DNA of 63,971 bases, the filler included, from Circinaria calcarea (taxonomy: Eukaryota): assembly GCA_051942165.1 (NCBI GenBank). It is 4 parts of 4 records of this genome, joined end to end, with 100 filler letters (N's around TTAATTAATTAA, not from the genome) between each part and the next. Parts side by side here need not be neighbours in the genome. Positions count along the whole stretch, not along the records: positions 1 to 16,555 come from JAVECS010000316.1; 3 more parts are not named here. One strand, written 5' to 3'. Positions 1 to 49,960 of this stretch are shown piece after piece. Within the stretch, counting starts at the first letter, position 1; each line of letters begins with the position of its first letter. Below the pieces are notes generated by a model. It ran no database searches. It saw nothing but the letters and a program-made list of their open reading frames with translations, and had not been told where the DNA came from. Made by a program: the position numbers and the translations under genes.

Positions 1-1578
1 CACAGTTCTTTGATCTGTATATTAAGAGAGTTATCCCCCATATCTGCTGCCAGGAGGGCCGGATTCGACATCAACCATGAACTATAATGACGTAGTCCGG
101 GAAGCACGCGGCGAGCAACCAGGGTGATCTTCTCTGAACCGCTGGTGCTGTTCGCTTGATTTACGCCTTCTTCGGTCACGAGGTGCTCAAGTTCAGGTTG
201 GAGGACCTGGAGAAGGGTAAAGAATGTTTTCACATTTAGCCGCTGAAAGAAGAAAAAAGCCTGTAAAACGTCTGCAGATTCTGGTGAAGCTATAGAGGTG
301 TCAGCTTAGCCAACATGAGATGGATCATAGAAGGTACCGACCTTGTAATCGAACTCTAGCAAAATATTGTGCAGCTATGTTTATGAGAATGAACTTATGC
401 AGGGTACCCTCCAGCGATCGCTCTTTCAAGTCAATCGCCAGCTGACTCAGGACCTCATTTTCTAGCTCGTCATGTTCGGCGAACTCTGCGCCTTTGTAGC
501 ACCGTGCATGGAGGCGCATGAACCATCCCAATAGGGCCTTTCCAGGTCCCTGGCCATCCCTCTGCGGGCCACTACTTATCAATTCACCCCTATCCCAAGC
601 AGCCGTGATCTTTTTAAACTCAATTTCGAGATTGCCCTTGGCAGTTGGATGGGGTTCGTCGACAGCTAGAGCACGGTAAAGATGATAAGTTGCTCGTAGA
701 TGATTACCATCAGCAAGAGCTATCACCGCCAACTGATTATGGGAAGCACCAGAGCATGGCCGTATAGACCCAGCTAGGTCGTAGTATCCAACGGCAGGAC
801 TCCAGTTGCGTTCCTTGGTGATTAGCTCCGTCTCACGATATCTAGAAAGATCACCTAAGCGGACCAAGGTTCGATGGCAAGATAAAAGCACTGCATGACG
901 TAGCTCGTCTGATAGCTGGAGCTTTCGGACTGTCTGAGTGGCTGCTATTTCTATATATTAGGCGTGACTGACTACCTATCGAAAGTAGGAGCGAACGTAC
1001 TGTCTGGTTGAAATTTGCCAGCTACAGCCTCGAGTTCTACTATACCACCAAAGTGCGAGGCGAGTCTCTGAATATACGCACGATAGAAGCGCTGACTAGA
1101 CTTGATGAACTCTAGGTATTGTTTCATTGCCTTGCGCTGTTCAACCGGCTTTCTCTTTCCTCCACCCTCGCGGAACTGTGTGGGCAAAACCATCAGTTTG
1201 ACCCGTTGAATAGTTGCCGAATGAACCTCACACTGCTGAGATGCTTGCGGAATTTGCTGTTGAGCTTGCCATGGGCTTCCCATAACTTAGCTTCAACATT
1301 TTTACTCTGCGCAAACTCGATGTCCAAGAATATAAGGGAATCGCAGTTGACACGGTAGCTTAGGCGCATTAGTTGGAGTGGAATAAAAGAGGCTTAAGAC
1401 CTCACTCTATGAGACGAAGGCTGACATATTCGAGTGAATAGCTTTTATCTACAATGGCCCTCTGAAGCTCTTTGTCGGCTTGTTGGTTGAATCTATGCGC
1501 CGTGAGCAACAATACGGTTAACAGTGGGTTGACGCATGACCAGTCCTACCTCCATGCTTGCTCTATCGATCCCGCCAT
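1..1578 (-). CDS. Est1/Ebs1/SMG5-7-type DNA/RNA-binding (TPR-like) protein, multi-exon, 3' end outside the window
   Basis: ATG at 1578 (MAGSIEQAWR, then a GTAGG donor). Downstream exons encode FIKSSQRFYRAYIQRL, CHRTLVRLGDLSRYRE, GYYDLA...P.SGASHNQLAVIA and YHLYRALAV..PHPTAKGNL, which are hallmark Est1-family motifs. Confidence 0.85.
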
Positions 1579-2290
1579 TTTGCGCAAGTGGAAGACGCTG
1601 TTCCAAGAAGACCCCACGGTCAACAACACTGTCAAGTATATAGATGAAGCTCCGGACAGAGGAAGGTGTTGAAGTAATCCATGACCTTAATCTTGGCTCT
1701 GAACGAACCTATCAGGTTAGAGGCGTAAGTTGCAGGTGGAATGTTATATAGTTGTATTGAAAGAGGAACCAGGCAATAGATGGCTAACATAGGTCGCCGC
1801 CGCAAAGAGAATGTTGGGGTTGCACATAAAAGGTGGCGGCAACTGTATTAAACATCACGTGATTTGCTCTCGACGCCCACCTCCCACAATCAAAAATTCG
1901 TGCAACTTTCGGGCTGTCAGCGAGGCTTATGATTCTACCATTTCGTTCCTCTATTTCAAAGGGCAAACTCAATGAAGAATCTATGGAAGCTTCCTATCAC
2001 AGCGAAAGTGTGAGATGGTGAAGAGGAATTACTGCGCTTTGGTTGATCCCCTTTCGAGGTTATCTATCAAATAAGAGTATTACTATACGAAGGCATCAAA
2101 CTCGAGGCAGAAAAGTCTCAGCAGTTTTCGATTAACATCCGGTTGTCTGCAGCTGTCAAGCTTATCAACTCTTGTTATATACCTTGAAATGCCGCCTCTC
2201 TCATCCTCAAGCCTCCATTTCCCTCTACCTATCTATGTCACACTCTTAACCTTCCATTTCTTCCACTGACACAAACACTAACCGACGGCA

Positions 2291-3673
2291 ATGAATATGA
2301 AGCTTGTCTTAGAAGACTTACCCAACGAAATCCTGGTTGCTTGCTTTCAGAACTTGAAGAATTCGAGCAAAAGAGATGACATCAAATCCCTGCGTCTTAC
2401 ATCCAAACTCTGCAATCAAGTTAGCTCCGGATTGCTCTTTGATTTCATACGAGTATATCTCGCGCCCGAGAGTCTCTCCCGATTTGAAAACATGTCTAAA
2501 CACCCAGTTTTCCGCAAGTGCATAAGTCAAGTGGAGGTGGATGTACCTTTCTATGATTATGCTCTGCCGGAAAACAGGCCTACCTATGGACACTATTGTC
2601 AAAATCGTATGATGCAGAGATTCATAGGTTTTCGCGATCCAGCGAAGATTAAGGCGTCCGGCCGCAATTACTCGACCACATACCGTATGCACGAAGAGTG
2701 GAGACGTTTTGGGAATGAAAAGGAGGAAACGACGGAGACGTTACCAAGTCTGACTTTTCTAGAGAATCTATATCAGGAGTACTGCCGATGCTACGCAGCA
2801 CAACAACTTGCAAAAGTCGATGGCCAGCACCTTCGTATCATAGTCGAAGGGCTTCTGCGTATGCCTATGGCAAGATCTATCAATCTGAATGATCAAGGTC
2901 AATCCTACGAAGAATCGGAAACGTCCTTCTCCGATGAAGCCATTACTTATTGGTGTCTTCGAAGAATGTCCTGGAACAACGCTGTCTGCGTACCTCCCAT
3001 TGAGATTCTCCCCGAGCTATTCACGGCTCTTTCAACAGCCGGGAGTTATCCTACCAGTTTCAAGGTCGACTTAACCACTCCACATGATCTGTCAATACTA
3101 CAATTGTCCGTAGATACTCAAGACCATATCCGTCGTGCCCTCTCGCAATCCCAACATCTCGTCTGTGACTTCAGACGATGGCCCCATCAAGGTGTTATTA
3201 GGCACGAAATGGCTCAGCTTGGCTCCTTAATTAAGGCTTATTTCTCGGCTATCAATCTCCAGTCCTTAGACCTGAGCTTCAATGATGACCCCTCTTGCGA
3301 GATTCCCACCTTCTCATTCACTGACGTGCTTCCTGTCAAGGCTTGGCCCTATCTGAGGACAGTCTCACTGCGCCACGTTCCTTGTCACGAACGTGATTTG
3401 GAGGCTTTTGTGGATCGCCAACAAGCGAGTGTTAGACATCTCACAATGGATGAGATCCATTTATTAACCGGTACGTGGCACAACTGTTTGGACAATCTGA
3501 GGCGCTTTTCGAAGTTGGAAGATGTGGTGTTATCATGGCCCATCGGTGGAGAGTTTGGAGATGATTATTGGCAGCTTAAGTCGCGTCCCAGTGAGGAGGC
3601 GCTTGTTGGCTATATCCTTCATGGTGGACGGAATCCCTTGGAAGGTTGGTTAGAGAATACAGACAGATTATGA
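2291..3673 (+). CDS. F-box domain protein with LRR-like C-terminus (intronless, 460 aa)
   Basis: N-terminal LEDLPNEILVACFQNL...IKSLRLTSK F-box pattern. The C-terminal WPYLRTVSL/VRHLTMDEIHL..GTW repeats are typical of fungal F-box/LRR proteins. Confidence 0.75.
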   Translation: MNMKLVLEDLPNEILVACFQNLKNSSKRDDIKSLRLTSKLCNQVSSGLLFDFIRVYLAPESLSRFENMSKHPVFRKCISQVEVDVPFYDYALPENRPTYGHYCQNRMMQRFIGFRDPAKIKASGRNYSTTYRMHEEWRRFGNEKEETTETLPSLTFLENLYQEYCRCYAAQQLAKVDGQHLRIIVEGLLRMPMARSINLNDQGQSYEESETSFSDEAITYWCLRRMSWNNAVCVPPIEILPELFTALSTAGSYPTSFKVDLTTPHDLSILQLSVDTQDHIRRALSQSQHLVCDFRRWPHQGVIRHEMAQLGSLIKAYFSAINLQSLDLSFNDDPSCEIPTFSFTDVLPVKAWPYLRTVSLRHVPCHERDLEAFVDRQQASVRHLTMDEIHLLTGTWHNCLDNLRRFSKLEDVVLSWPIGGEFGDDYWQLKSRPSEEALVGYILHGGRNPLEGWLENTDRL

Positions 3674-4232
3674 ATTTCAATATAGAGCGATGAGACTCAG
3701 GGCTCCTTGCTTTCATAGCTTCGTGGTCTATTGACGTTATAGAATACACCTGGAAATTGCAATTAGATACAATGTGTGCTACCTAACCCTTAACCAAATC
3801 AATCACCCCTTGATAAGGTAGCTGCTGTATCACGCCTCCATCATTGACTGCGTCCTCTTGCCTCTCGTGGAGACTCATCTGGCTGCCGAGGTGAATCCAG
3901 TTTGCTACAGGCATACATAGTACAGATAATTCACCCTGCAGAGCGGCTAAAAACATCACGTAAGGTATCTTTCCAAAACAACAACCTACCATGAGCTTTA
4001 CCCCACACTAGATGAGTAAGATAGACATACAGTGCCACCCATCCTCCCCTCCAACGCCAGATTATTTCCAAGCTGTACTCACGGTTTTGGTATAGAACAT
4101 GGGTACATAATCCCGAATTTTCGAAATTTTAGCATTCCGGCACTCGATAAAATCCGTGAATTTGCTTTCTCACAGCAAAGGATATGAACAGAGGATCAAG
4201 CAAGTAATTATCCCACCGCTACATCATGCGCT

Positions 4233-5173
4233 ATGGCAAAACACTCACGAGAAGACTCCGTCTCCTGCTCCGACAGCGACCTCTCAGCCGACGTTCAGCC
4301 AAGGAGCTCTAAATATACTCAAATATCCAGCGAAGAGCTCCCAGCACACGTAATGGAATGCTCCCTGCCGCCCCATCAGCCGTTGTCTTTTACTACCTAC
4401 GCAGACTATGAAATACACTATGCTCAAGTTCATACCAATCGATGCTCGGAGTGTAGAAAGAACTTCCCAACAGAGCATTTCCTCAATCTCCACATAGGCG
4501 AAAACCATGATCCTCTGAATGATGCTCTAAAGGCAAGGGGAGAAAAGACGGTATCGTATCGCCAGCAGTCCGAGTCAGTCTGACATCACACTAAGTCTCT
4601 TCCATAGTACCACTGCTTCGTCTCAGACTGCGATAAGATTTGCTCTACTCCGCAAAAGCGTCGGATGCACCTCATCGATAAACATCTGTTCCCTAAGGTG
4701 AAGTAGTATCTGTGATTCATATCATTTTATCGTTGCTAATTTCATACTTGCAGAATTATGATTTCTTCATAGTCAACGACGGTATCGACAAGCGTAGCTC
4801 TATGCTTCGTGTTCGTTCTACACACCGTCGCAGGCGTAGCTCGGCCGCGTCTAGAGCAATGCATCGAGATTCACATGCTCAACAACACCGGGCTTCAGTC
4901 CCTCTTGTTGCCGGTATTGATGAGCGACCTGATAAAGAACCCGTGGATGACGAGCCCAGCTCCAGCCAAGCTTCGAAGGCGGTGCCGAATGCTAGCTCGA
5001 GACCTTTACCAAATAGATATAATGGTGAGGCTTCACCGTCCCGAAGCCTGGATGAAGCTCCTGTTGACGATGTCATGGAGTCTTTAACCTCCGGTTTGTC
5101 ATCACTTAAGTTTATCCCGCCAAGTGTCCGGTTTGGTCGCGGAGGCCGAAGGGGAGGATTTGCTAAGAGTTGA
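4233..5173 (+). CDS. C2H2 zinc-finger protein, ZNF511-like; exons 4233-4550, 4608-4697, 4754-5173
   Basis: Fingers CSLPPH...H..QVH, CSECRKNFPTEHFLNLHIGENHDP and CFVSDCDKICSTPQKRRMHLIDKHLFPK. The GT-AG introns 4551-4607 and 4698-4753 join in frame. C-terminal FIPPSVRFGR motif. Confidence 0.85.
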
Positions 5174-7314
5174 AAGCCTATCACATTATTCTCTATGAGA
5201 AAGTGGTCAGGTTTGACTTTGGTTCATATGTTACTTCCGATTGCCATGTAAGATTCTGCGATCTCCCACGACTCCTTAGTCGTTTGTTCACTACACCTTA
5301 AACATATGTCTCCTACAGACCGGCCGTCAGCTTAACATCATTTTTGGATTATCATGCTTGATCCATCTTTGGGATATCGTAGTATCAGACGTGAGGAGAC
5401 CGTCAAGTCAAAAGGTACTCTTACGAATAAGGGAGTTAGTCGAGTTGTTTAAACGCTACTTAAGACGAGAGTTCGGTGTTTAGAAACAAGTGTGAAGCAA
5501 GCCATTCTTCTGTTCCTTTCAATCCCCCCAAATTGGTCACTCGTTAAACTATGCTTTGACCCTGACAGCATCTGCCTTCCTTAGTACTCACTACCTCAAT
5601 CCCATGAATGCTCGCCTTATTTTACCTTCGTACTACCGCCTACCGCATGTTCGACGCCATTTTGAATTGCGTACATCCGGTTGTTATCCTAAGTTCCCTC
5701 GACAGATCCAATTCTGCCGCTACTAGGCAGCAGATGTTTGAAGATTGCACCTGCTCGGAATTTTATGCATTGGGCGACATTGTGGGCAAGGAGAGGAGGG
5801 AGATGAGCAGTGATATGACGGCCGAAGAGAATCCCGATGAAAAGGGGGTATGGTCCTACCTGACGACTATGATCAGCGGACATTAGTCCTCCCCAGCCGA
5901 CTTATCAATGCCTTGAAAGTCACACATGGCCACCTGATTAGATCAGTCCCTCTACCACAATCATCATTTGCCAAGGAGACAAACTCGCTACGGTCCGAAC
6001 CCGAATGTAGACTGCTCTCCGGAGAGTCATCATCGCTGGCCAAGTATATCAACCCTCTCGATCGGTTGTCGAGAAGCACCCTGCTGACTTTTGCCTTTTC
6101 AGGGAGTGGTGGACCAGTACATTAGCCGTGGATTGTGCAGCGCTGAACAAATTGCAGCGTTGCAGGTGGCGCAGGCGAAGCTTGCGGAGGAGAACGCTGC
6201 CACGGTCCTCGCACTTGCAGACAAGATTTTGGCGTGCGCGCTCTGATTGCTTGTCGAGGTTTGGCTGATATGGAGTGGAGATTATGATCGGCTTGAATCT
6301 TTTTTTTTTTTTTTTTTTTTTAGAAAAAAGGGCCCCTGATCTCCGCCGTCAATTCTTTTATTTTGGAAGCATCTTAGTCCCCCCCCGTCTTAGTTCCGGT
6401 TTACTTTGAATATTATTTGGCTGCAATCGTATCGCTCTCTTATAAACCTCTTACAAAGGCTCCACCTGGAGCACTTTGCCATTTTAATGCCTCAACTTTC
6501 CCCACGACATAATTACTCCCGAACCCCCCTTTTCATAAAAATGCAGTCCCTATCCCTCCGGGCCGCTGATCGCTGATCCAGCAAGCCGTGCATATTGTTG
6601 GAATAGGTATGACATACAGGTAATAGTAATCGTATTGTATGAAGATCTATCTATTCTATATGGGCATTAAAGCAGTGTATATAGCAAGATATAAATAGTA
6701 ACACATAGAAAGCATATACCACTCCGCCAACACAGTAAACATAGGTTCGCTAAATCCATGGCTCAACAAGCCCCTTTTCCCCTTTGCGTGCTATCTAATA
6801 AATATATATATTAAACTCTTCGGGTCTTTAAATACTCGCGATAAAGTCTATTAATTGGCGCTGAGTCACATCTCTATTTACGTATGCACAATGCGTTGAA
6901 TGAGGCAGTTCATATGTAGTGATTTGAATGCAATTCGTGTTCATTCAGAATCTATGGAGAGTCTGCGGTTCTATGGAGAGAAAAATAGCGCTTTTATGTG
7001 TATGACGCGAAGGCGCTAGTGTCCTGTTTACTGAATTCCCAGGTCTGAACCGGCGAGTTCACGTGTTAGTGCCAAGTTCGACAATACTGTTTATAGCTAC
7101 GCAATTGCTATGGCCTATACCTTAAATTCATATAGTAACCATGGGAGGAGGCCTACTAGTATGAAAATTCAACATATTGAGTTGCGTGTCAGAGGGTAAG
7201 TGGGCAGGGTGTCAAGCTGCCTTGATGAGTTCGTTTGGACTGCTTGTTTGTAAACGTCTATAGGGCTAATAATATCAAGTGCTTGACGTCTTGAGAATGC
7301 CGTACATGTCTTAT

Positions 7315-9479
7315 TCAAGATGGATGTTGAGTAGTGCGGATTGAAAGATACAATATAGAAACAACAGCAAGAGCTATAGCCGCCATAGGATCGCGCACAG
7401 ATCTCCATTCCGGGAAAGAAAAGATGAGAATTCCTAGCGTTATCAAGTTGCCCCAAAGCCGTACTGGGGATAATGCAATATGTTTGGTATCGGATCTCTT
7501 ACCTGTGCTGGAGCTTTGGTAAAGTGGGTTTCCTTTGTGTGAATCCGTTCCAGATTTTGCTGCTAATTCAAGACCTGCCAGAGATTCACGAAGCACAGTT
7601 GCCTTCAGTCCACGAGCCAAATCCGAGGGCATGTTTCCGTTTTCGTCCGGTGACAGAAGGATTTCACTGTCCCCTAAAGCCACTATTTTTCTGGCTGCTG
7701 CCAAATTCCCCCACCTCGCAGCACAATGTAACACAGTCTGAGATGAGTTGTCCTTGGCATGAAGATCTTCACCATTAGCATGGAGCAGGTCAATAGTCTC
7801 CAATCTCTTGCTTTGCACCGCATAATGAAGAGCCGTACGCCCTTTATTATCTGCCCTCTGAACCTCAGTTGAGCTGGCTCTTTCAAGAAGGTATCGAAGA
7901 AGGCTAACATTCCCCCTGGATGCGGCAAGATGTAGACAAGTCCTTCCGAAGCCATCCACGGACCACAAGTCGGCAGAATCATGTGCAATGCCTCGTTCGA
8001 ATAGCTCGGGGGTGCTCTTGCTGCTCCATGCTAGAAAATGAGTAATCGACATTCCCTGAGAATCTGGAAATGTGACCTCGATCCAGTCATCCCGCAAAAG
8101 GACCTTTTCGACGGTGTCACTGAAAAACGTGTGCAATGGGGTCCTACCGTCGACCGTGTTATTTGCAAGATCCGCGCCATTCTCAATTAGCAGTCTCACA
8201 GTATCGTAGTTGCCTTTCCTAGCCATCGCCCAATGGAGTGGTGTGTCTCCGTCTCCATCTTGAGCGTTCAAGTCTCCACCTTCCTGGATGAGCAATCGTA
8301 TTAGCTCAATGTTCCTGGTCTTAGAAGCCAAATGTAGCAGCGTGGTGCCGTGGATTGTAACATCCCTTGATGTTGCTCTGCCGGCACCGAGCATACGTTG
8401 TACACCCTCTACTGACCCCTCTTCTACGCATCGCATAATTTCTGCGCTTCGAGGAATGGTCCTAGGGCAGTCGATATCCCAATAGAAAGTGAGTCTCACT
8501 CGGGATAGGAAGGACGCTTGAACCAGGTACAGAGCTATATCAAGTCTTCTACGGCAAAGCTTTGATAAACTCAATGACAAACCAAGCCCAAATCCGGTTT
8601 GACGATAATGCGGTGGGAATCGGGCTTGTTGCTTTCTGTTCAAGTTCGGCATGATGGCCGGACCCAGCCGAAGTGCAAAGTCACAGAATAGGAAGCTCCA
8701 CCGTTGTATAAATGTGACTCTGATTGAAGATGATGGTGAAAACGATGCTGGAACACCAAGGATAGCAACATCGCTGGACTTGGCACAATGGCCGAGGGGT
8801 CCTGGAGAATGGGGTGTTCCAGTTGCCGGGTATTCGTAAAAAGGTAATGACTGAGATAGTCGCGGCGCCCCAGCTACACTTGAGGAAGACGGCGCCAAAG
8901 CTGAGGCTGTTATCACCGACTCTGGCGGAACCATCGACGGTGTTGGAGATCCGTTGATGGTCCTGCAATCTAACCTTAGCCCTTATGACTTTCCGAGTCT
9001 CCTTGAACCCCAGGTGGAACTTACGTCAGCAGCATGAGAAGTTCTAGAAAGAATTCATTTTGATATAATTTGACTTTCTCCAGAAACTTCCTTGTTTCTT
9101 GCTCTCCAATTAGCAGCCATCTTACCCTCTCCCATGATCTCCTTGCTTTGCCATCCCAGTCACGTTTACAGCTCTTTTTTACGCCAAATCTGGCATCAAT
9201 CTTGCCTATCTTGACCTCAAAGGTTTTCAAGTCGTTCAAGCACTGATTGAGCCTATGGCAGAAATGCGTCGAGAACTTATACTTCGGATCTAGCTCCGTG
9301 CCACTTTGTTGAAGGTTGGTCATGGTTATATGTAACGAGTCTAATGCTAACAAGGACTCATGTACATTGGCTGGCATAGACGCGATCCCACGAAAAAATT
9401 TGAACATAGTTCTGCTGGACTCAGCAACAAAACTGACCACGGCTAGGACTGACGCGGTGGTGGAAAGAGGTTCGGCCAT
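7315..9479 (-). CDS. HeLo-like (fungal STAND N-terminal-type) domain + ankyrin repeats + C-terminal TM helices, ~700 aa; exons 9479-9025, 8962-7315
   Basis: The N-terminus MAEPLSTTASVLAVVSF...WERVRWLL...FLEKVKLYQ is typical of fungal HeLo-like/SesA-class N-terminal domains. The intron GTAAGT...GCTAAG...TGCAG (9024-8963) restores the frame. Multiple G.TxLHxA ankyrin repeats, then a hydrophobic C-terminus (LITLGILIF, AIALAVVSILYL). Confidence 0.8.
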
Positions 9480-10113
9480 GCTGGCGCTTCCTACTTCAAA
9501 GATTCCAATAATGCAAGTGGAGTGGAAAGCAACCGTTCGAAAAGAGCAATCCAAAACTCAATAGGGCTACAGTAGGCAGCACCGCATATATGTTGTGATC
9601 TCAAGCTATAGCCTGAGTCCAATTTTATAGAGGCTATGCTATTGCAAAGAGTAAGGCTTAGCAACGACGTCTACTTCCCGATCAAGGCCTCCAATAGTAC
9701 AGTCAGTGCAGTGCAGAGCTTCACCCTGTCAAGGCAGTCCAGTGCAGAGCCCATGCTGTACTGCACCAGCTAGTGGAGGTCTTACTTTTCATATTAGTTC
9801 CGAGTCGATGTGTCGTTCAGTTCGACTGTTATCACGTCTGTACACAGCCACTATTGTACAGGGGGAATCTAGGGCTGTGTACCAAAGTATAAACAACGTC
9901 GTACAAGATGCGGGGTATGCCGGCAGGCAGAGCGTCCCTTTCCTTTCTCAAATCCTTCCTACTTCATTCAAGATAGTATGTACACTCCTGGTGAAGCCTC
10001 ACTGCAGCCACTCTGTTAATATTCTGTGGACTATTTTCGCAACGACGTTGTTCCAGGAAAGTGTCAGCGCATACCCATTGGATCAGTAACAGCTCGCGGT
10101 CAGCCTATGAGAG

Positions 10114-10463
10114 ATGCCCTCAAGCGCAAACCCTCCAGCAGGCTCCACTGAGGAAACAACCTACACTATATCAGACGGAGTGTACTACTTCCGAAGCGGT
10201 ATGTGCCCGAGTCTTTGCCACCTGAAATGCACCTTCATTTCGCTCTTAGCTGAAGTCTTCCATTATATACAGGAAAGTGGCGGCGTGGGGAGATCAGAGG
10301 CGAAGGAGGCAGCAGCGATACCTCTAAAAGATATTTGGTAAGGCCCTTCCTGCACTTAAGTGGTTGATAACCATCACTCATAGCATTGATACAGGTTAAG
10401 GATATCGATAAAGGCGAAGAATACATAGCGGACATACATGATATTCGAAAAATTCCTGCATAA
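10114..10463 (+). CDS. 72-aa Tudor/SH3-fold microprotein; exons 10114-10198, 10273-10337, 10395-10463
   Basis: Introns GTATGT...TACAG (10199-10272) and GTAAGG...TACAG (10338-10394) give the open frame MPSSANPPAGSTEETTYTISDGVYYFRSGKWRRGEIRGEGGSSDTSKRYLVKDIDKGEEYIADIHDIRKIPA*. This resembles the Tudor consensus (G.WxRa.I ... V.fvDyG..e.v...dIr.lp). Confidence 0.65.
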
Positions 10464-10669
10464 TCGACCTTTAGCGACTCACTACGGCTTAAGAAAAAGG
10501 CACACCCGACTACAGCACCTTCCACTTACAACTCCTGGGCTAAAAGGTTTACCATTTTGCCTCCTTCCGCGGTTGTGTGTCTTTCGTTCACACTCGTCTT
10601 GGATAGAATATACTTCACCCCTGAAAATTACTCCAGTAGCCTTCATCCGGACAACTGATATAGCCCAAG

Positions 10670-13600
10670 ATGATGAAAAGTTCTTCATCAGCATTTGAAT
10701 CTGTCGGCGGTCGTTCACTCCATGAGCTCCTTCAACAACATCTCGCAGAAAATAAAAATTACGAGGGCAGGAGTTTTATGTGTAGGGCAACAGTTGAGCA
10801 GCTGCTAACTTACGAACGAGTTTCCGGCTGGATAGACAATCATCCAATCAGTCAAGGCTCGAACATTTACAACCAAGATCTGATTACCTATATCGTCGAC
10901 AAATCTCGCATACTTTTTGCTATATTAGTAATGGCAAAACTCGAGCATCTTATATCCGCCTTTTTCTCGAAACGCCTAAGCGATGATTCACTCCCCGAGA
11001 TCGATTGCAGCTTCTTGGGCTTAAGCCACGACGAACAGCGTAGGCTTGATAAATATCGTCATCTTGTTGGTCCAGTTTTCGGGATGAACAAGCACCTATA
11101 TCTGTCCCAAGAAACTATATTGCCATTTGTGAAGAGGGGATCGATCAACAAAAATGGATCGTTCGGTCAGATATTTTATGCCGAGGTTGCAGATGGTCAT
11201 CTGAAGGGCTATAACAAGGTATAACGCCAGCTATGCATCTGAAGACATGAAAATTGCTAACGGTACGCAGAGCAGAGTCGCGGAGAAACTTATTCGTTTA
11301 GACAAGCCTGACAATGAGCAAAGCGCCCTCCGCGAAATAAACACTCTTCGACAAAGACAACATCCTAATATCGTCCCTCTGTTAGCATCATACACTTTGA
11401 AAACGGTGGAGTCAGAAGTTGCCGTGAAAACCTTGCATCTGATATTACCGCTTGCTGAAATGGATCTGGCAGACTGGATGGTCCTTCCTCAACCGCCGGA
11501 TTGGCTTCAAGAGCTGCCAAGACCGGAACGCCGGGCATGTTTATATCGCTTCATATATGCACTTGTGTCAGCCCTTTCGTTTCTTCACCGCGAGAAGGAT
11601 GGTATGGTCACAGCACACCATGACATGAAACCGGGGAATATCCTGGTATTCGAGCAAGAATTGAAGATCGCTGATTTCGGACGCTCGCACATTCGCCCTT
11701 TGGTCAAAGGTTCGGAAACTGAGGCCGCCTCGGGGTTGGGAACATATGAATATCACCCACCTGAATACTGGAAGGATAATGGATACCGTGCAGAAGAAAA
11801 GCACGGACGCGCGTTCGATGTTTGGTCTATGGGTTGCATTATCATCGAGATTGCAATTCTGACTGTCTATGGTTGGGGACCCGGGAAAGTCACCGAATTT
11901 AGAAATCAAAGGGGAGATAATTCAAAGAAAGAAAGGCCTATGCTCGCCGCTCGGCAGCTCGCCGCTCGGCACACTCCCGATTATTCTTTTCACAACAACT
12001 GGGCCGTAGTCGAAGATTGGATCGAACGTTTACAGATTGAAGATGGTAGCTCGAAATTGAAGTCGACATTGAAAGTAGCTACGCAGATGATGACTCAAAC
12101 GCCTAGCAGCCGCTTGTATGCATGGGAGGCTGAGTTGGATCTACACAATATACAACAACCTGACGACGATCGAATCACGCGGTTGGAGGAAGGAGCTCTG
12201 TGTGTTCAACCTCCACCACTGCAAAGAAAGATACTCAACGGCACGCAGACGCCTCTGCATAGGGCTGCACAGAACGGGGACACAGAAAGACTTGTCCAAC
12301 TTTTTGAAGCTAAATGGTCGCTATTTGTGCAAGATCATGAAGGTTTGACGGCGTTAGATGTGTTCAAACAGAGCCAGAAACGTTCCTTATATGATTACCT
12401 ATGCACGCGTCTGGCTCCGAAGACAATAGAGAAAACAACAAATGGAGAACAGGGCCGAAAGCTGCTTCAGGCTGCAACGAGAGGCCAGACTGACGTGGTC
12501 CTGGATCTGTTAACCCAGGGAGTGAACGCCATGTTTGTTAGCGAAGAAGGTCATTCGGCTCTGTACAAAGCAGTTTTATATGGCCAATTGAGTGTAGTTG
12601 AATGCCTCTTACGAGCTAAGGGGAAGGACCTACTGCGACTGAAAGACGTTCGGTCGGGTGACACGCCTCTGCATAAAGCTGCCTCGTTAGGCGACGCGAC
12701 TATTATCAAACAGCTATTAGCAAATTCTCCCGAAATCGAAGCCCAACAAATGGAAGGGAAGACCGCACTATTCCTTGCGGCTGAATGGGGCCGCGAGGAA
12801 GCTGTCGAAGTCCTTTTAGGTTATGGCGCGCAAGTTAACACCCAACAAAACTGGGGAGGAGGAACCCCGCTTCATGCTGCAGTGAAAGGAAACAAAATCA
12901 AAGTTCTCGAGCGGCTTCTCGGAGCTGATGACGCTGGCAAGTGTCTTGAGCATAAGAATAGGTCTGGCGACACCCCGTTATGGCTTGCGCTCTTTCACAA
13001 GCATTTTGAATGTGCCCAGATCTTGCTCAACAATGGAGCCTCATTGCATATTGCTGAAAATGACGGTAATGCCGTACTCCATGTCACCGTAACGAGAGGC
13101 TTGCATGACTTTCTAAAGGAGAATATACGCCAATTTCGCCGGGATGATATACAACGCACGATCAAACTTGGCGAAGAAGGCAGAATTGGGTTCCAAACCG
13201 TTTCTTCTCAACTTTCACATTCCACGGGTCAATTGAGCGACGAGACTAAAGCTGGCTTCCAGATGGTTTCGTCCCAGCTTGCCGGTGCTGTGTCAACGCG
13301 AGAAGCAAAGAACCTGGAGGCGCTCAACCGCTCAGACGATCTTACACAGAATGGAAACCTCAATTCTCAAAAGCTGGATGAAGTTTTCCAGCAACAGGGT
13401 AGGGTTATTCATGTGAGTGAAGTGGGTCTCCAAGCCGTCCACTCCAGCCTCATGAGGAAAGGGCACAAGGTGACTCAAGCTTTGTTGAGTCAATACGGCG
13501 CCCAATTAGACCAAATCACAAGGATCTTGGGGACGGGTGGACACAGTGTATATTCGACATCAAAACGTCTTGAAGCACCGCATCTCACTACTATGGAGAC

Positions 13601-15734
13601 CTCTATGTTCTGGAGATTTTTCTCCTACAGCTTGCCTATCGGAAATTTGAACATCGCACGTCAAAGTATACGCTCGAAGCGCTCAGCTTCACAAGATCAC
13701 ACAGAGTGGAAAATCGCGGTAAACTTTGTGCCACCGTGGTGGTTATCTAGTTTCGCGGTGCGATATGTTATGAAGCTTGATCACGATTTGATTGGTGACC
13801 AATGGCGCTGGGGCGCGAGCTTGAATCCTCTGACAATCAATCATGACCCTTTTTTTCTCAAAGCTGCTAGAGATTGTGTCGTTGAAGGTGTACAGGAATC
13901 TTTCCGGAAAGGTCTAGCCCGAAAAACAGACTACGTCTTGGATCCATGGGGTGAACCACAACCATGGCAAATAGTTAGTCTCCCTTGCAACCGTTGATAA
14001 TGACGTGCTGAGTATGTCATTCAGTCACTCGTGTGGAGACACCGTGGAGATTCCTGCTATCGGGCACTTTCGATGTTTGGGTGTATGACAAAGGAAGGAA
14101 TCCCAAATGAGTAAGTGGATTTAAAAATGCAAGATTGGTATTTCCTGATATACTCTAGGGAACACGTTTTGTTCTGGATCTCACGAGTTGTCGATGCTAC
14201 AACTTCCCATAAAACTCTCCGAGGTCAATTAAACACCTATGCAGAATATGGCGGTGATCTTTTTAAAGGAAACTGTTCTGTTATTAGATGGTTGTTCATA
14301 AATGGCCCTGGTACTACTGATTGGGTTCTGGACTTGTTATCCCATCCATTTAAGTCGTCTGAACCATTGGTGATAGATGACCTCTCACCGTTTGCAATTT
14401 GCCTTATTGGTATCTTGGCCCACGCGGATACCAAGTTTCGAAGCCTGCTAAAGGAATATCTGGCTAGCTACCGTTCGCCGCTCCTTTGTTCTTCAGCTCA
14501 CGCAACGGACCAACTGTTTAGATCTACATTCAACATAGATTCCATCTTAACCCACTTTCGCAATTTGGAACCAGACCTGAGATGTGACTTATTAGCAATA
14601 TTATGCAAAGCCGGCTCGCCTTCAATGCTGAAACCTTTTATGGACATTGGGATTGATATCAATGATGATTCCGGTAACACCAACATGCTAGCAAATGCAG
14701 CAGCGGCGGGGAATACTGAAATTGTCTCCATGCTTCTGGACGCTGGTGCGAACGGCGCTTTAGCCATCAATGGATTCCTGCATAGGAGTCAATGCCTCCC
14801 TGAGGCGCGCTTCAAAGGACTTCTCCAATTATTAGTGGAAAAAGCTAGACCTCCGGTATCCGAGCATTCGTTCAGAGACCCGTTGAACGCAATCCTCAAG
14901 TCAAGCAGAGCACTCTCGCTTTGCCCTGAGGCGCCAGAGATCCTTCTCAGCCAGGGAGCGTTCTCCCACGAACTATTATTTGGGGGAATTGCCAGCTTTA
15001 GCTCGAGTTATATGTTTCAGGCTATTACAATGAGGGATGATAACCTGATGGAGTTGCTTTTGAAGCAGGGGGCACTTTTCGGCGCACAGATTGATAATTT
15101 GTTTTGCTATGCAGATGGGTTCAGTTCATATACCTGGTTGACTTTCTCTATTCTCTGTGGCGCTGCATCTTGTGTCAGCATTCTTATTAGTCATGGAGCG
15201 GATGTTGCTGCTCCGGACGGATCTGGCAGGTCTGCAATTCAAATCGCCAAATCTAACGCGGTGGCTTCCCATCCTCGCAATTGGAAGTCCAACTGGTTAC
15301 GCCTGCCTAAAGTCACTGCTGAGAAAGATGCCAGGACTCTAGCTGTGGTGAAGCAAGCCTTCGACCTCAAGTTTCAGGGCACCGAAAACTTCGAAGACTA
15401 CATTGACTCCAGCGGTCAGATTGACTATCATCCACCCACGCGGCGAGAAAAATTCACATCCACTATTCAAAGGGCTCACGAAATGATCCTTGGGTTCATC
15501 TTCACCCGTTTCATTCCTCACGAAGTGTGGAACCTCTGGCGTTTATCATTCTTCGAAGCTTTACTGGTGAGGTCCATCTACGTCCTGTCATATTTCCTGC
15601 TCTTCGCCGTCGAAGCGGTCGCCTTTGCTACAGGCCAGAAACCCATCCCGAAACCCTCGAGGACCTTTCTTTCAGCAGTGGCGGTGCTGATGCTGGCGAT
15701 TATCTGGGGTGGCTTTTTTCACTTTGGGACATGA
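10670..15734 (+). CDS. Ser/Thr protein kinase + ankyrin repeats + linker domain + second ankyrin block + C-terminal TM, ~1637 aa; exons 10670-11218, 11271-13973, 14025-14110, 14159-15734
   Basis: Kinase motifs GSFGQIF, VAEK, HPNIVPL, HHDMKPGNIL, DFG, GTYEYHPPE and DVWSMGCI. TPLH ankyrin repeats follow. Three GT-AG introns join the ORFs in frame. Two hydrophobic C-terminal segments. Confidence 0.85.
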
Positions 15735-15802
15735 TGAGATGGGGACTGATATTCTTGAGCTATGAGGTAAATGACTATATGTTCAAGGAGGTTAGTGGAT
15801 GC

Positions 15803-15970
15803 TGTTGGAAAGTATAGGACTTACTGAGTTGTGTGTTACCTACGGGTGATACAAGGTCTGTGCTCAACAATTCCTCCACCTAAAAGCACTTTTTCGCTGT
15901 ATGCTAGCTTAGACAAAACACCACTTAGATAGCAATACATACATGTCACCATACATGCTGCTCAACAGAT
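15803..15970 (-). repeat. Dispersed ~160-bp repeat, copy 1
   Basis: Shares blocks with 30602-30756 (same orientation) and 31373-31528 (opposite orientation), e.g. AAGCACTTTTTCGCTGTATGCTAG, TTAGATAGYAATACAT and GAAAGYATASGRCTTACYGAGT. Confidence 0.8.
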
Positions 15971-16416
15971 ACCATTCGAAAGAGAAATAGGCTCGGGATG
16001 GGATATAGAATGGATTCTGGGTGGAGAAGAACAGGGTGTTTTGGCGGTATAAAGGGTATTGACTGTTGAACGGAGGCAGGTGGGCATGCAGAATGTGAAG
16101 GTTGCTTGCATTTCTATGTATATATGCCCGCTATTTATGCAATGGAAGGGCAACACGCCGCTAAGCCTAATCGGGTCTAAAGGGGACTTCCAACATTGAT
16201 GTTATTGAGTTTTCATACTATAAGCATTCTCCCATGACTGGTATAAGAATCTAAGGTACATACCATACCTAGTACATAAAATATGCACATTACAGAAATA
16301 GAAGAAACGGGCTCTCAAGCCGTAGTTAAGCAAGACCGTGTCTATTTGCGCTAAAGTACTGTTTTTACCAAAGTACATATGGTTTTCCGCAAGTGGTAAT
16401 TTATATTTACAGTGAA

Positions 16417-16517
16417 TTACTGCCATACCCCCTGAACATGCTATTCGTTACTCCCATACCCCCTTAACTTACCGCCATACCCCCCCACCCTTTCATCTTA
16501 CCGCCATACCCCCCTGT
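16417..16517. repeat. Four copies of TTACYSCCATACCCCC, possibly a transposon terminus
   Basis: Copies at 16417, 16448, 16469 and 16498. The last ends in CCCCCCTGTA, i.e. TA-CAGGGGGG on the minus strand. Confidence 0.7.
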
Positions 16518-16555
16518 AAGGGCGCTGCAATCCTTAGGCCTATTGAGGAATATGA

Positions 16556-16655
16556 NNNNNNNNNNNNNNNNNNNNNNNNNNNNNNNNNNNNNNNNNNNNT
16601 TAATTAATTAANNNNNNNNNNNNNNNNNNNNNNNNNNNNNNNNNNNNNNNNNNNN
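16556..16655. other. Artificial contig linker N44-TTAATTAATTAA-N44
   Basis: Exactly 100 nt with a six-frame-stop 12-mer in the middle; identical to the two other gaps. Confidence 0.97.
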
Positions 16656-33208: not shown

Positions 33209-33308
33209 NNNNNNNNNNNNNNNNNNNNNNNNNNNNNNNNNNNNNNNNNNNNTTAATTAATTAANNNNNNNNNNNNNNNNNNNNNNNNNNNNNNNNNNNN
33301 NNNNNNNN
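33209..33308. other. Artificial contig linker N44-TTAATTAATTAA-N44
   Basis: Same 100-nt structure as the other two gaps. Confidence 0.97.
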
Positions 33309-49860: not shown

Positions 49861-49960
49861 NNNNNNNNNNNNNNNNNNNNNNNNNNNNNNNNNNNNNNNN
49901 NNNNTTAATTAATTAANNNNNNNNNNNNNNNNNNNNNNNNNNNNNNNNNNNNNNNNNNNN
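49861..49960. other. Artificial contig linker N44-TTAATTAATTAA-N44
   Basis: Same 100-nt structure as the other two gaps. Confidence 0.97.

Follow-up and report, generated by a model that had tools for sequence, protein, structure and literature searches.

A conserved cassette of HeLo-like/ankyrin, microprotein, and kinase-ankyrin genes in the lichen fungus Circinaria calcarea, a candidate cell-death or defence switch

The window analysed here is a 63,971-nucleotide stretch of DNA from the lichen-forming fungus Circinaria calcarea, taken from an assembly of 31.5 Mb in 5512 contigs. The locus in question lies wholly inside one of these, contig C316 (window positions 1-16555), and consists of three genes that we call A, B, and C: a gene for a HeLo-like/ankyrin protein, a divergent gene for a microprotein, and, directly behind the latter, a gene for a kinase-ankyrin protein. 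They are laid out as follows.

7315-9479, minus strand: gene A, 700 aa, with a HeLo-like head, a beta-rich linker domain, an ankyrin array, and a C-terminal membrane helix
9480-10113, no strand: divergent intergenic region between A and B, 634 bp
10114-10463, plus strand: gene B, a 72-aa microprotein (exons 10114-10198, 10273-10337, 10395-10463)
10670-15734, plus strand: gene C, 1637 aa in four exons, with a non-RD (non-arginine-aspartate) kinase, ankyrins, and a tail with two C-terminal hydrophobic helices

Spliced at GT-AG sites, none of the three genes contains an internal stop codon. Gene A has two exons on the minus strand (9479-9025 and 8962-7315) and a single intron of 62 nt (8963-9024); the NCBI protein P0008, labelled Circinaria calcarea and identical to A across the region used as query, agrees with this model in its intron and C-terminus and starts at a later Met. 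The introns of B measure 74 and 57 nt and are both GT-AG. The ATG codons of A and B are 635 bp apart, and 206 bp separate the stop codon of B from the start of C. The shared intergenic region, which spans 476-494 bp at two of the metagenome loci discussed below (L061 and L065), probably acts as a bidirectional promoter. Exons, Pfam domains, both spacings, and the location on one contig reproduce the gene structures given in a preliminary description of this DNA. The same description had noted the lack of a NACHT/NB-ARC P-loop, and our Pfam scan of A and C agrees, with no NACHT or NB-ARC match in either protein; the sole Walker-A-like string (C674) falls within an ankyrin repeat. With C-terminal ankyrin repeats present but a NACHT/NB-ARC domain with its P-loop absent, the trio is, by its predicted domains, not a fungal NOD-like receptor (NLR) of the STAND type (signal transduction ATPases with numerous domains).

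The family of A has 81 other members among the best 120 of 455 matches, alongside 38 unrelated ankyrin matches, and the kinase-ankyrin list comprises the best 120 of 224 matches. As a proxy for linkage, we scored an A relative and a kinase relative that lie on contigs of exactly equal size. By this measure, 24 of the 81 A relatives are on contigs matching that of a kinase among the matches listed; counting just the 62 whose contigs reach 6 kb, the number is again 24. When sizes were shifted at random, the mean was 0.2 and the maximum 3 matches in 2000 trials, and none of the 38 unrelated ankyrin matches paired with a kinase contig. The 24 pairs are a lower bound, both lists being made up of best, clustered matches. 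Adjacent locus tags for A and the kinase occur in five of ten named NCBI relatives of A (Loekoesia, Pyrenodesmia, cf. Caloplaca sp. 3, Dirinaria, and Bacidia), with no annotated gene between the two; the other five have no adjacent kinase among the matches listed. Further named kinase relatives come from Pyrenula, Psora, Stictis, Vezdaea, and Geoglossum, genera that span several classes.

The complete trio was found in metagenome data, in which we scanned 79 loci from the best 80 of 399 relatives; eight hold true A genes, and seven of these have enough upstream DNA to be informative. A divergent kinase is present at five of the seven (at L066 as a 3' remnant) and B at four (L061, L062, L065, and L064), and these four preserve the order and orientation of the window, with A pointing one way and B and the kinase the other. 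L062 and L065 are 99.5% identical to each other and hence one case, leaving three independent loci, from L061 (77% DNA identity to the window) to L064 (35-47% protein identity). The start of A and the start of the kinase are about 1.0-1.8 kb apart across the loci, except at L062 with its transposon insertion: a 3.1-kb element (L062:6000-9139) of 28% GC, with terminal inverted repeats of about 59 bp, lies between A and B there and is absent from L065. None of the upstream neighbours in the window (EST1, F-box, and zinc-finger genes) was found at the other loci. The flank beside A at L062 carries Pam16, Pex24, and DUF3405 (domain of unknown function) genes; in an empty-site comparison, Pam16 was not found in this incomplete assembly. 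L062 and L065 have frameshifts in common in both A and the kinase, next to flanking genes with long open frames, and A and the kinase have decayed jointly at L061, L062/L065, and L066. On this evidence, the cassette moves and decays as a unit. The linked module proposed in the preliminary description is thus borne out: other fungi carry homologues of all three genes as neighbours in this order, and at least 24 further contigs hold the A/kinase pair.

Gene C divides into a conserved part and a tail, as listed here.

10670-13140, plus strand: conserved part of C (aa 1 to about 806), with an N-terminal domain, a non-RD Ser/Thr kinase, and an ankyrin array
13137-13155, plus strand: in-frame fusion junction, at which the last kinase ankyrin repeat is cut and continues as exon-2-type sequence of another HeLo-like/ankyrin family
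13155-15734, plus strand: grafted tail of C (aa about 810-1637), a headless copy of a HeLo-like/beta-domain/ankyrin/two-helix membrane gene

The 183-aa N-terminal region of C (10670-11218) has no Pfam match and is conserved in L061, L062, L064, and L065 as well as in a paralogue on contig C976. Behind a 52-nt intron (11219-11270), the catalytic loop at 11616-11639 reads HHDMKPGN, which is of the non-RD type. HHD is found in 116 of the best 120 kinase relatives and HYD in one, the motif not being found in three, while H-H-D-x-K-x-x-N and D-[FLM]-G are retained in 76-78 of 78 aligned kinases. With the catalytic Asp, Lys, and Asn and the DFG-type and PE motifs in place, C is predicted to be an intact non-RD eukaryotic protein kinase. 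A hydrophobic tail is present in 0 of 95 kinase relatives; the kinase conserved in the family is thus predicted to be a soluble protein of about 830 aa, and only A would be anchored. A quick kinase tree departs from taxonomy, placing a Pyrenula kinase inside the clade of the window (support 94), and there are several paralogous clades per genome. Among Flavoplaca, Xanthocarpia, and Caloplaca kinases, P0302, P0315, P0317, P0147, P0304, and P0308 have lost or replaced the ankyrin tail, which suggests that tail swapping on this kinase is recurrent. The closest kinase paralogue in the genome itself (L023, G000:C976:5889-9144; 1-1266 plus, about 30-35%) has no ankyrins and stands tail-to-tail with a kinase-like gene (L023 1456-2847 minus) that lacks the usual catalytic motifs and has weak DUF7580 and Pkinase matches.

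Gene A, the presumed membrane partner, contains four features of interest.

9025-9479, minus strand: exon 1, a HeLo-like (PF17111) helical bundle by Pfam and structure model
8467-8736, minus strand: unnamed beta-rich pre-ankyrin domain (aa about 228-317), conserved across the A family
8011-8025, minus strand: SSKST Ser/Thr cluster (aa 465-469) in the ankyrin array, from an alignment of 76 sequences
7330-7386, minus strand: C-terminal hydrophobic helix

The N-terminus of A matches PF17111 at 32 bits (family cut-off 27.2), with ankyrins behind it, and the cut-off is likewise passed by P0021, P0039, P0070, P0081, and P0085. PF17111, now named PigL_N, corresponds to what the literature on fungal NLRs calls HeLo-like and is grouped with the four-helix bundle of MLKL (PMC9815663). 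The predicted structure of the head has five helices at a predicted local distance difference test score (pLDDT) of 79.7. Its fold matches include Rx-CC, Sw-5b, and MLKL amid generic bundles; the Rx-CC match (Z 9.6, root-mean-square deviation (rmsd) 3.2, 103 aligned) also ranks below unrelated bundles, and Foldseek returned no match to the HeLo-like model at E 0.001. The pre-ankyrin domain has no match in Pfam or Atlas, and its low-confidence model (predicted template modelling score 0.39) has no structural match at Z >=5. Within the SSKST cluster, S465, S466, S468, and T469 are Ser/Thr in 96-99% of the aligned relatives, making it a candidate phosphorylation site. The hydrophobic tail is kept in 72 of 74 near-complete A relatives.

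Both intron positions of B and their phases are kept in three modelled homologues. The L064 homologue, whose gene model was picked with B in mind, reaches 35 bits when scored with a profile from which it had been left out, compared to 7.2 bits for the best of 999 shuffles. In the comparisons that involve L065, the ratio of nonsynonymous to synonymous substitution rates (dN/dS) comes to 0.33 (p 0.0003) and 0.39 (p 0.002). On these sequence grounds, B is a real gene under purifying selection. Scanned singly, its exons (22-37 aa) gave no usable match in Pfam, Atlas, or the PDB; a search of the genome with Hva1_TUDOR did not pick B, and the B profile gave no alignment with three Hva1 copies and no match among 382 fetched proteins, nor did it reveal additional B-like genes in the fetched loci. 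Four B homologues retain Trp-Arg and Arg-Tyr in exon 2. Judged by eye against the Tudor consensus, the strand pattern is compatible with an SH3/Tudor-like barrel, the fold named in the preliminary description, which is unconfirmed, and the presumed aromatic-cage positions look non-aromatic.

The tail of C has a different origin from the rest of the gene. Its DNA (13208-15802) is 79.7% identical to a paralogue on contig C1995 (L017), with the match extending into the 3' flank. At the protein level, the C1995 gene, which opens with a HeLo-like exon, not a kinase, shares 72% identity with residues 830-1084 of C and 69% with residues 1127-1637. The family of the C1995 gene is separate from the A family and has at least four more copies in the genome; this donor family comprises L017, L018, L019, L020, and L021 (contigs C1995, C743, C2062, C2694, and C225). 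Its HeLo-like/beta-domain/ankyrin genes carry no NACHT domain in the parts examined, and the HeLo-like exon has 18 matches genome-wide. Kinase relatives, the closest (86%) included, match only the kinase and ankyrin part of C and end about 30 residues past the junction. A search for relatives of 1578-4505 aa sharing the fusion returned only seven weak matches, mostly kinase-HET proteins; lengths of 1104-1577 aa were covered solely by the 50%-representative search. C is, as far as sequence comparison can tell, a chimera, its residues from about 810 to 1637 being a recent graft from a separate HeLo-like/ankyrin family, and in this genome the graft would tether C to the membrane and supply a second ankyrin sensor. 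The likeness of C to A is thus attributable to a lineage-specific fusion, which changes how the two proteins were first described. They had been credited with the same pre-ankyrin domain, but a profile-profile comparison aligned just 27 ankyrin-proximal columns (probability 5.5%, and 0.2% without these columns) and found no detectable homology past them. C-terminal anchors and ankyrins are indeed encoded in both genes, yet the anchor and the second ankyrin block of C belong to the grafted tail. As a description of the family, a pair of similar membrane-anchored proteins is incorrect (tail in 0 of 95 kinase versus 72 of 74 A relatives).

We consider it rather unlikely that the fusion of kinase and tail arose through misassembly or as a fresh accident and yields no working protein. 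The fusion architecture was not found in any other retrieved protein, the closest relative ends normally, the assembly is fragmented, and the purifying selection seen in the tail, with dN/dS 0.57 (p 0.006) and 0.69 (p 0.004), may be older than the fusion. However, the reading frame is open through the junction, all introns are intact, and the tail differs from the C1995 paralogue, sharing 80% and not 100% identity with it. The missing kinase end and a close orphan HeLo exon were not found elsewhere in the assembly with the queries used, a weak point given that the genome is incomplete. The grafted tail is a dated case of domains exchanged between two families of immune-like character.

We propose, with a probability of roughly one half, that A, B, and the kinase-ankyrin gene are inherited together and function as one unit in lichen-forming and related ascomycetes, most likely as a regulated cell-death or non-self-defence switch devoid of a nucleotide-binding domain (NBD), in which the soluble kinase controls the membrane-tethered A and B is a regulator. 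This reading is based on the conserved linkage and order, the intact catalytic kinase, the HeLo-like head on a tail-anchored ankyrin protein, the real microprotein, and the changing flanks. In such a switch, the soluble kinase-ankyrin protein would sense via its ankyrins and write the signal by phosphorylating A, plausibly at the conserved SSKST cluster. Phosphorylation would then loosen the HeLo-like bundle from the beta domain and the ankyrins that restrain it, and the freed bundle would attack the membrane to which A is already tethered. B, encoded directly upstream of the kinase, could set the threshold as an inhibitor, an adaptor, or a guarded bait. Doubtful, and put forward tentatively, is the more specific idea of a necroptosis-like cassette, in which the kinase-ankyrin sensor would directly activate a tail-anchored HeLo-like/ankyrin executioner without an NBD, amyloid, or pseudokinase, the roughly 70-residue barrel B would serve as brake or bait, and the graft would show tail swapping between families. 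Fungal HeLo-type executioners are described as activated by amyloid templating or built into NLRs (reviews, including PMC12881547), and the extent to which necroptosis is conserved in fungi has been named as an open question (PMC12881547). With such a compact cassette, retained in distant fungi, three short constructs would suffice to test whether a kinase controls a HeLo-like protein; the cassette also adds a microprotein that annotation usually skips. No description of the cassette was found in the literature searched, mostly without subscription papers and without supplements, and this conserved three-gene arrangement is apparently undescribed.

Several observations weigh against this interpretation. 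In the structure model, the MLKL match of the A head (4btf; Z 8.6, rmsd 2.9, 100 aligned) ranks below dynactin p150 (Z 11.1) and sits within the noise range for helical bundles, and the first helix of A is moderately hydrophobic (0.9-1.6 in a 17-residue window). A also has no pseudokinase: there is no kinase Pfam match, and the best E-value of the kinase profile against the A family is 0.28, so that A, having been tested for a pseudokinase after the bundle, is by its domains not an MLKL. PF17111 moreover heads proteins without a known death role, such as Monascus PigL, for which no function is discernible in its cluster (PMC8241920). As to linkage, 57 of the 81 A relatives have no matching kinase contig among the matches listed, and L067 and L078 hold a decayed A with neither kinase nor B. 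A and kinase distances do co-vary across 25 pairs (Spearman 0.84, 0 of 2000 permutations), in keeping with co-inheritance, but this is to be expected from physical linkage alone. Finally, comparison of B with L061 gives a dN/dS of 0.88 (p 0.43); the L061 locus is decaying, its A gene carrying four stops.

By analogy, the cassette may work like the clustered controller-plus-executioner systems of fungi and like RIPK3-MLKL. As in the animal RIPK3-MLKL pair (PMC12881547, PMC10197012), a Ser/Thr kinase with intact motifs is combined with a protein that opens with an MLKL/HeLo-type bundle, and phosphorylation is the proposed trigger. In contrast to MLKL, A carries a beta domain, ankyrins, and a membrane tail in place of a pseudokinase, whereas the kinase has ankyrins and no amyloid motif that we noted, and the genes are clustered with a microprotein between them. 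In het-S/nwd2, HELLP/PNT1, and the gasdermin and Q2L protease clusters (PMC12881547, PMC10197012), a putative membrane attacker likewise adjoins an enzyme or sensor with ankyrin-type repeats, and their distribution is patchy as well; the present cassette differs from them in having no NACHT/NB-ARC, protease, or gasdermin, a kinase as controller, and ankyrins on both partners. Podospora het-Va/het-Vb (PMC9262711) similarly places the gene of a modifying enzyme beside a MLKL/HeLo-domain gene and involves a small beta-barrel (Tudor) element, recalling the barrel-like B, whose fold is unconfirmed. The Podospora system, however, has a SET methyltransferase as its enzyme and carries the Tudor region inside HET-Vb, whereas here the enzyme is a kinase and B a separate gene. 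Monascus PigL (PMC8241920) shares with A the PF17111 head and ankyrin repeats, and its locus shows presence/absence variation; the available text mentions no kinase partner and gives no known function, and the likeness to A is one of domain layout.

Other explanations must be weighed against this functional switch. The trio could be functional without killing, with A as a membrane-anchored ankyrin scaffold whose head serves oligomerisation or partner binding and a kinase that signals to stress or symbiotic-interface pathways. The linkage data fit such a unit equally, ankyrin proteins are expanded in lichen fungi and have been proposed to act at the symbiotic interface (PMC6652019), and the A head is weak in fold discrimination, with modest hydrophobicity of its first helix. 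We nevertheless consider this explanation unlikely, since the A head passes the HeLo-like family cut-off and since patchy presence, paralogous clades, changing loci, and joint decay are closer to immunity or allorecognition than to core signalling.

Some of the same features could also result from a selfish poison-antidote or allorecognition cassette. The kinase or A would then be poisonous unless its cognate antidote, B or the partner, is present, and fused hyphae or sibling spores with mismatched alleles would die. At all four trio loci, 206 bp separate B from the kinase downstream of it, and at L066, which is without the 5' half of the kinase, B was not detected; the location of the cassette changes, the kinase tree departs from taxonomy (with a Pyrenula kinase in the clade of the window), and Podospora het-Va/het-Vb provides a precedent of an enzyme and a HeLo/Tudor gene in a pair (PMC9262711). 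Yet B is conserved in the L065 comparisons (dN/dS 0.33-0.39) and not hypervariable, and we judge this scenario to be quite unlikely. Least probable to us is passive linkage, in which three unrelated accessory genes, lacking a common function, are carried along jointly as cargo or use one promoter. While Starship elements of lichen fungi do carry ankyrin cargo (PMC13486527) and many records show A with no kinase detected among the matches listed, order, orientation, and spacing persist at protein identities as low as 35-47%, with different genes in every flank, and contig C316 showed no transposase or captain gene.

The remaining features of the contig lie to either side of the cassette.

325-957: EST1-like gene, left neighbour of the cassette
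2282-3673: F-box gene (weak match), left neighbour of the cassette
4188-4583: C2H2 zinc-finger gene, left neighbour of the cassette
7109-7172, no strand: 64-bp element downstream of A, 78% identical, inverted, to 16205-16267 downstream of C
16062-16196, no strand: dispersed repeat of 132 bp resembling a miniature inverted-repeat transposable element (MITE), with short imperfect terminal inverted repeats; another copy lies behind the C1995 paralogue

The 64-bp inverted element was considered as a pair of transposon ends and rejected for now, as it was not found at the orthologous metagenome loci. Runs of N at 16556-16655, 33209-33308, and 49861-49960, with a TTAA linker, join separate contigs of the window, and genes across them are not neighbours. 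The 132-bp MITE-like element has at least 28 matches among 40 scored of 200 candidates, and a second family of short dispersed repeats is present at 16408-16514, near the end of the contig.

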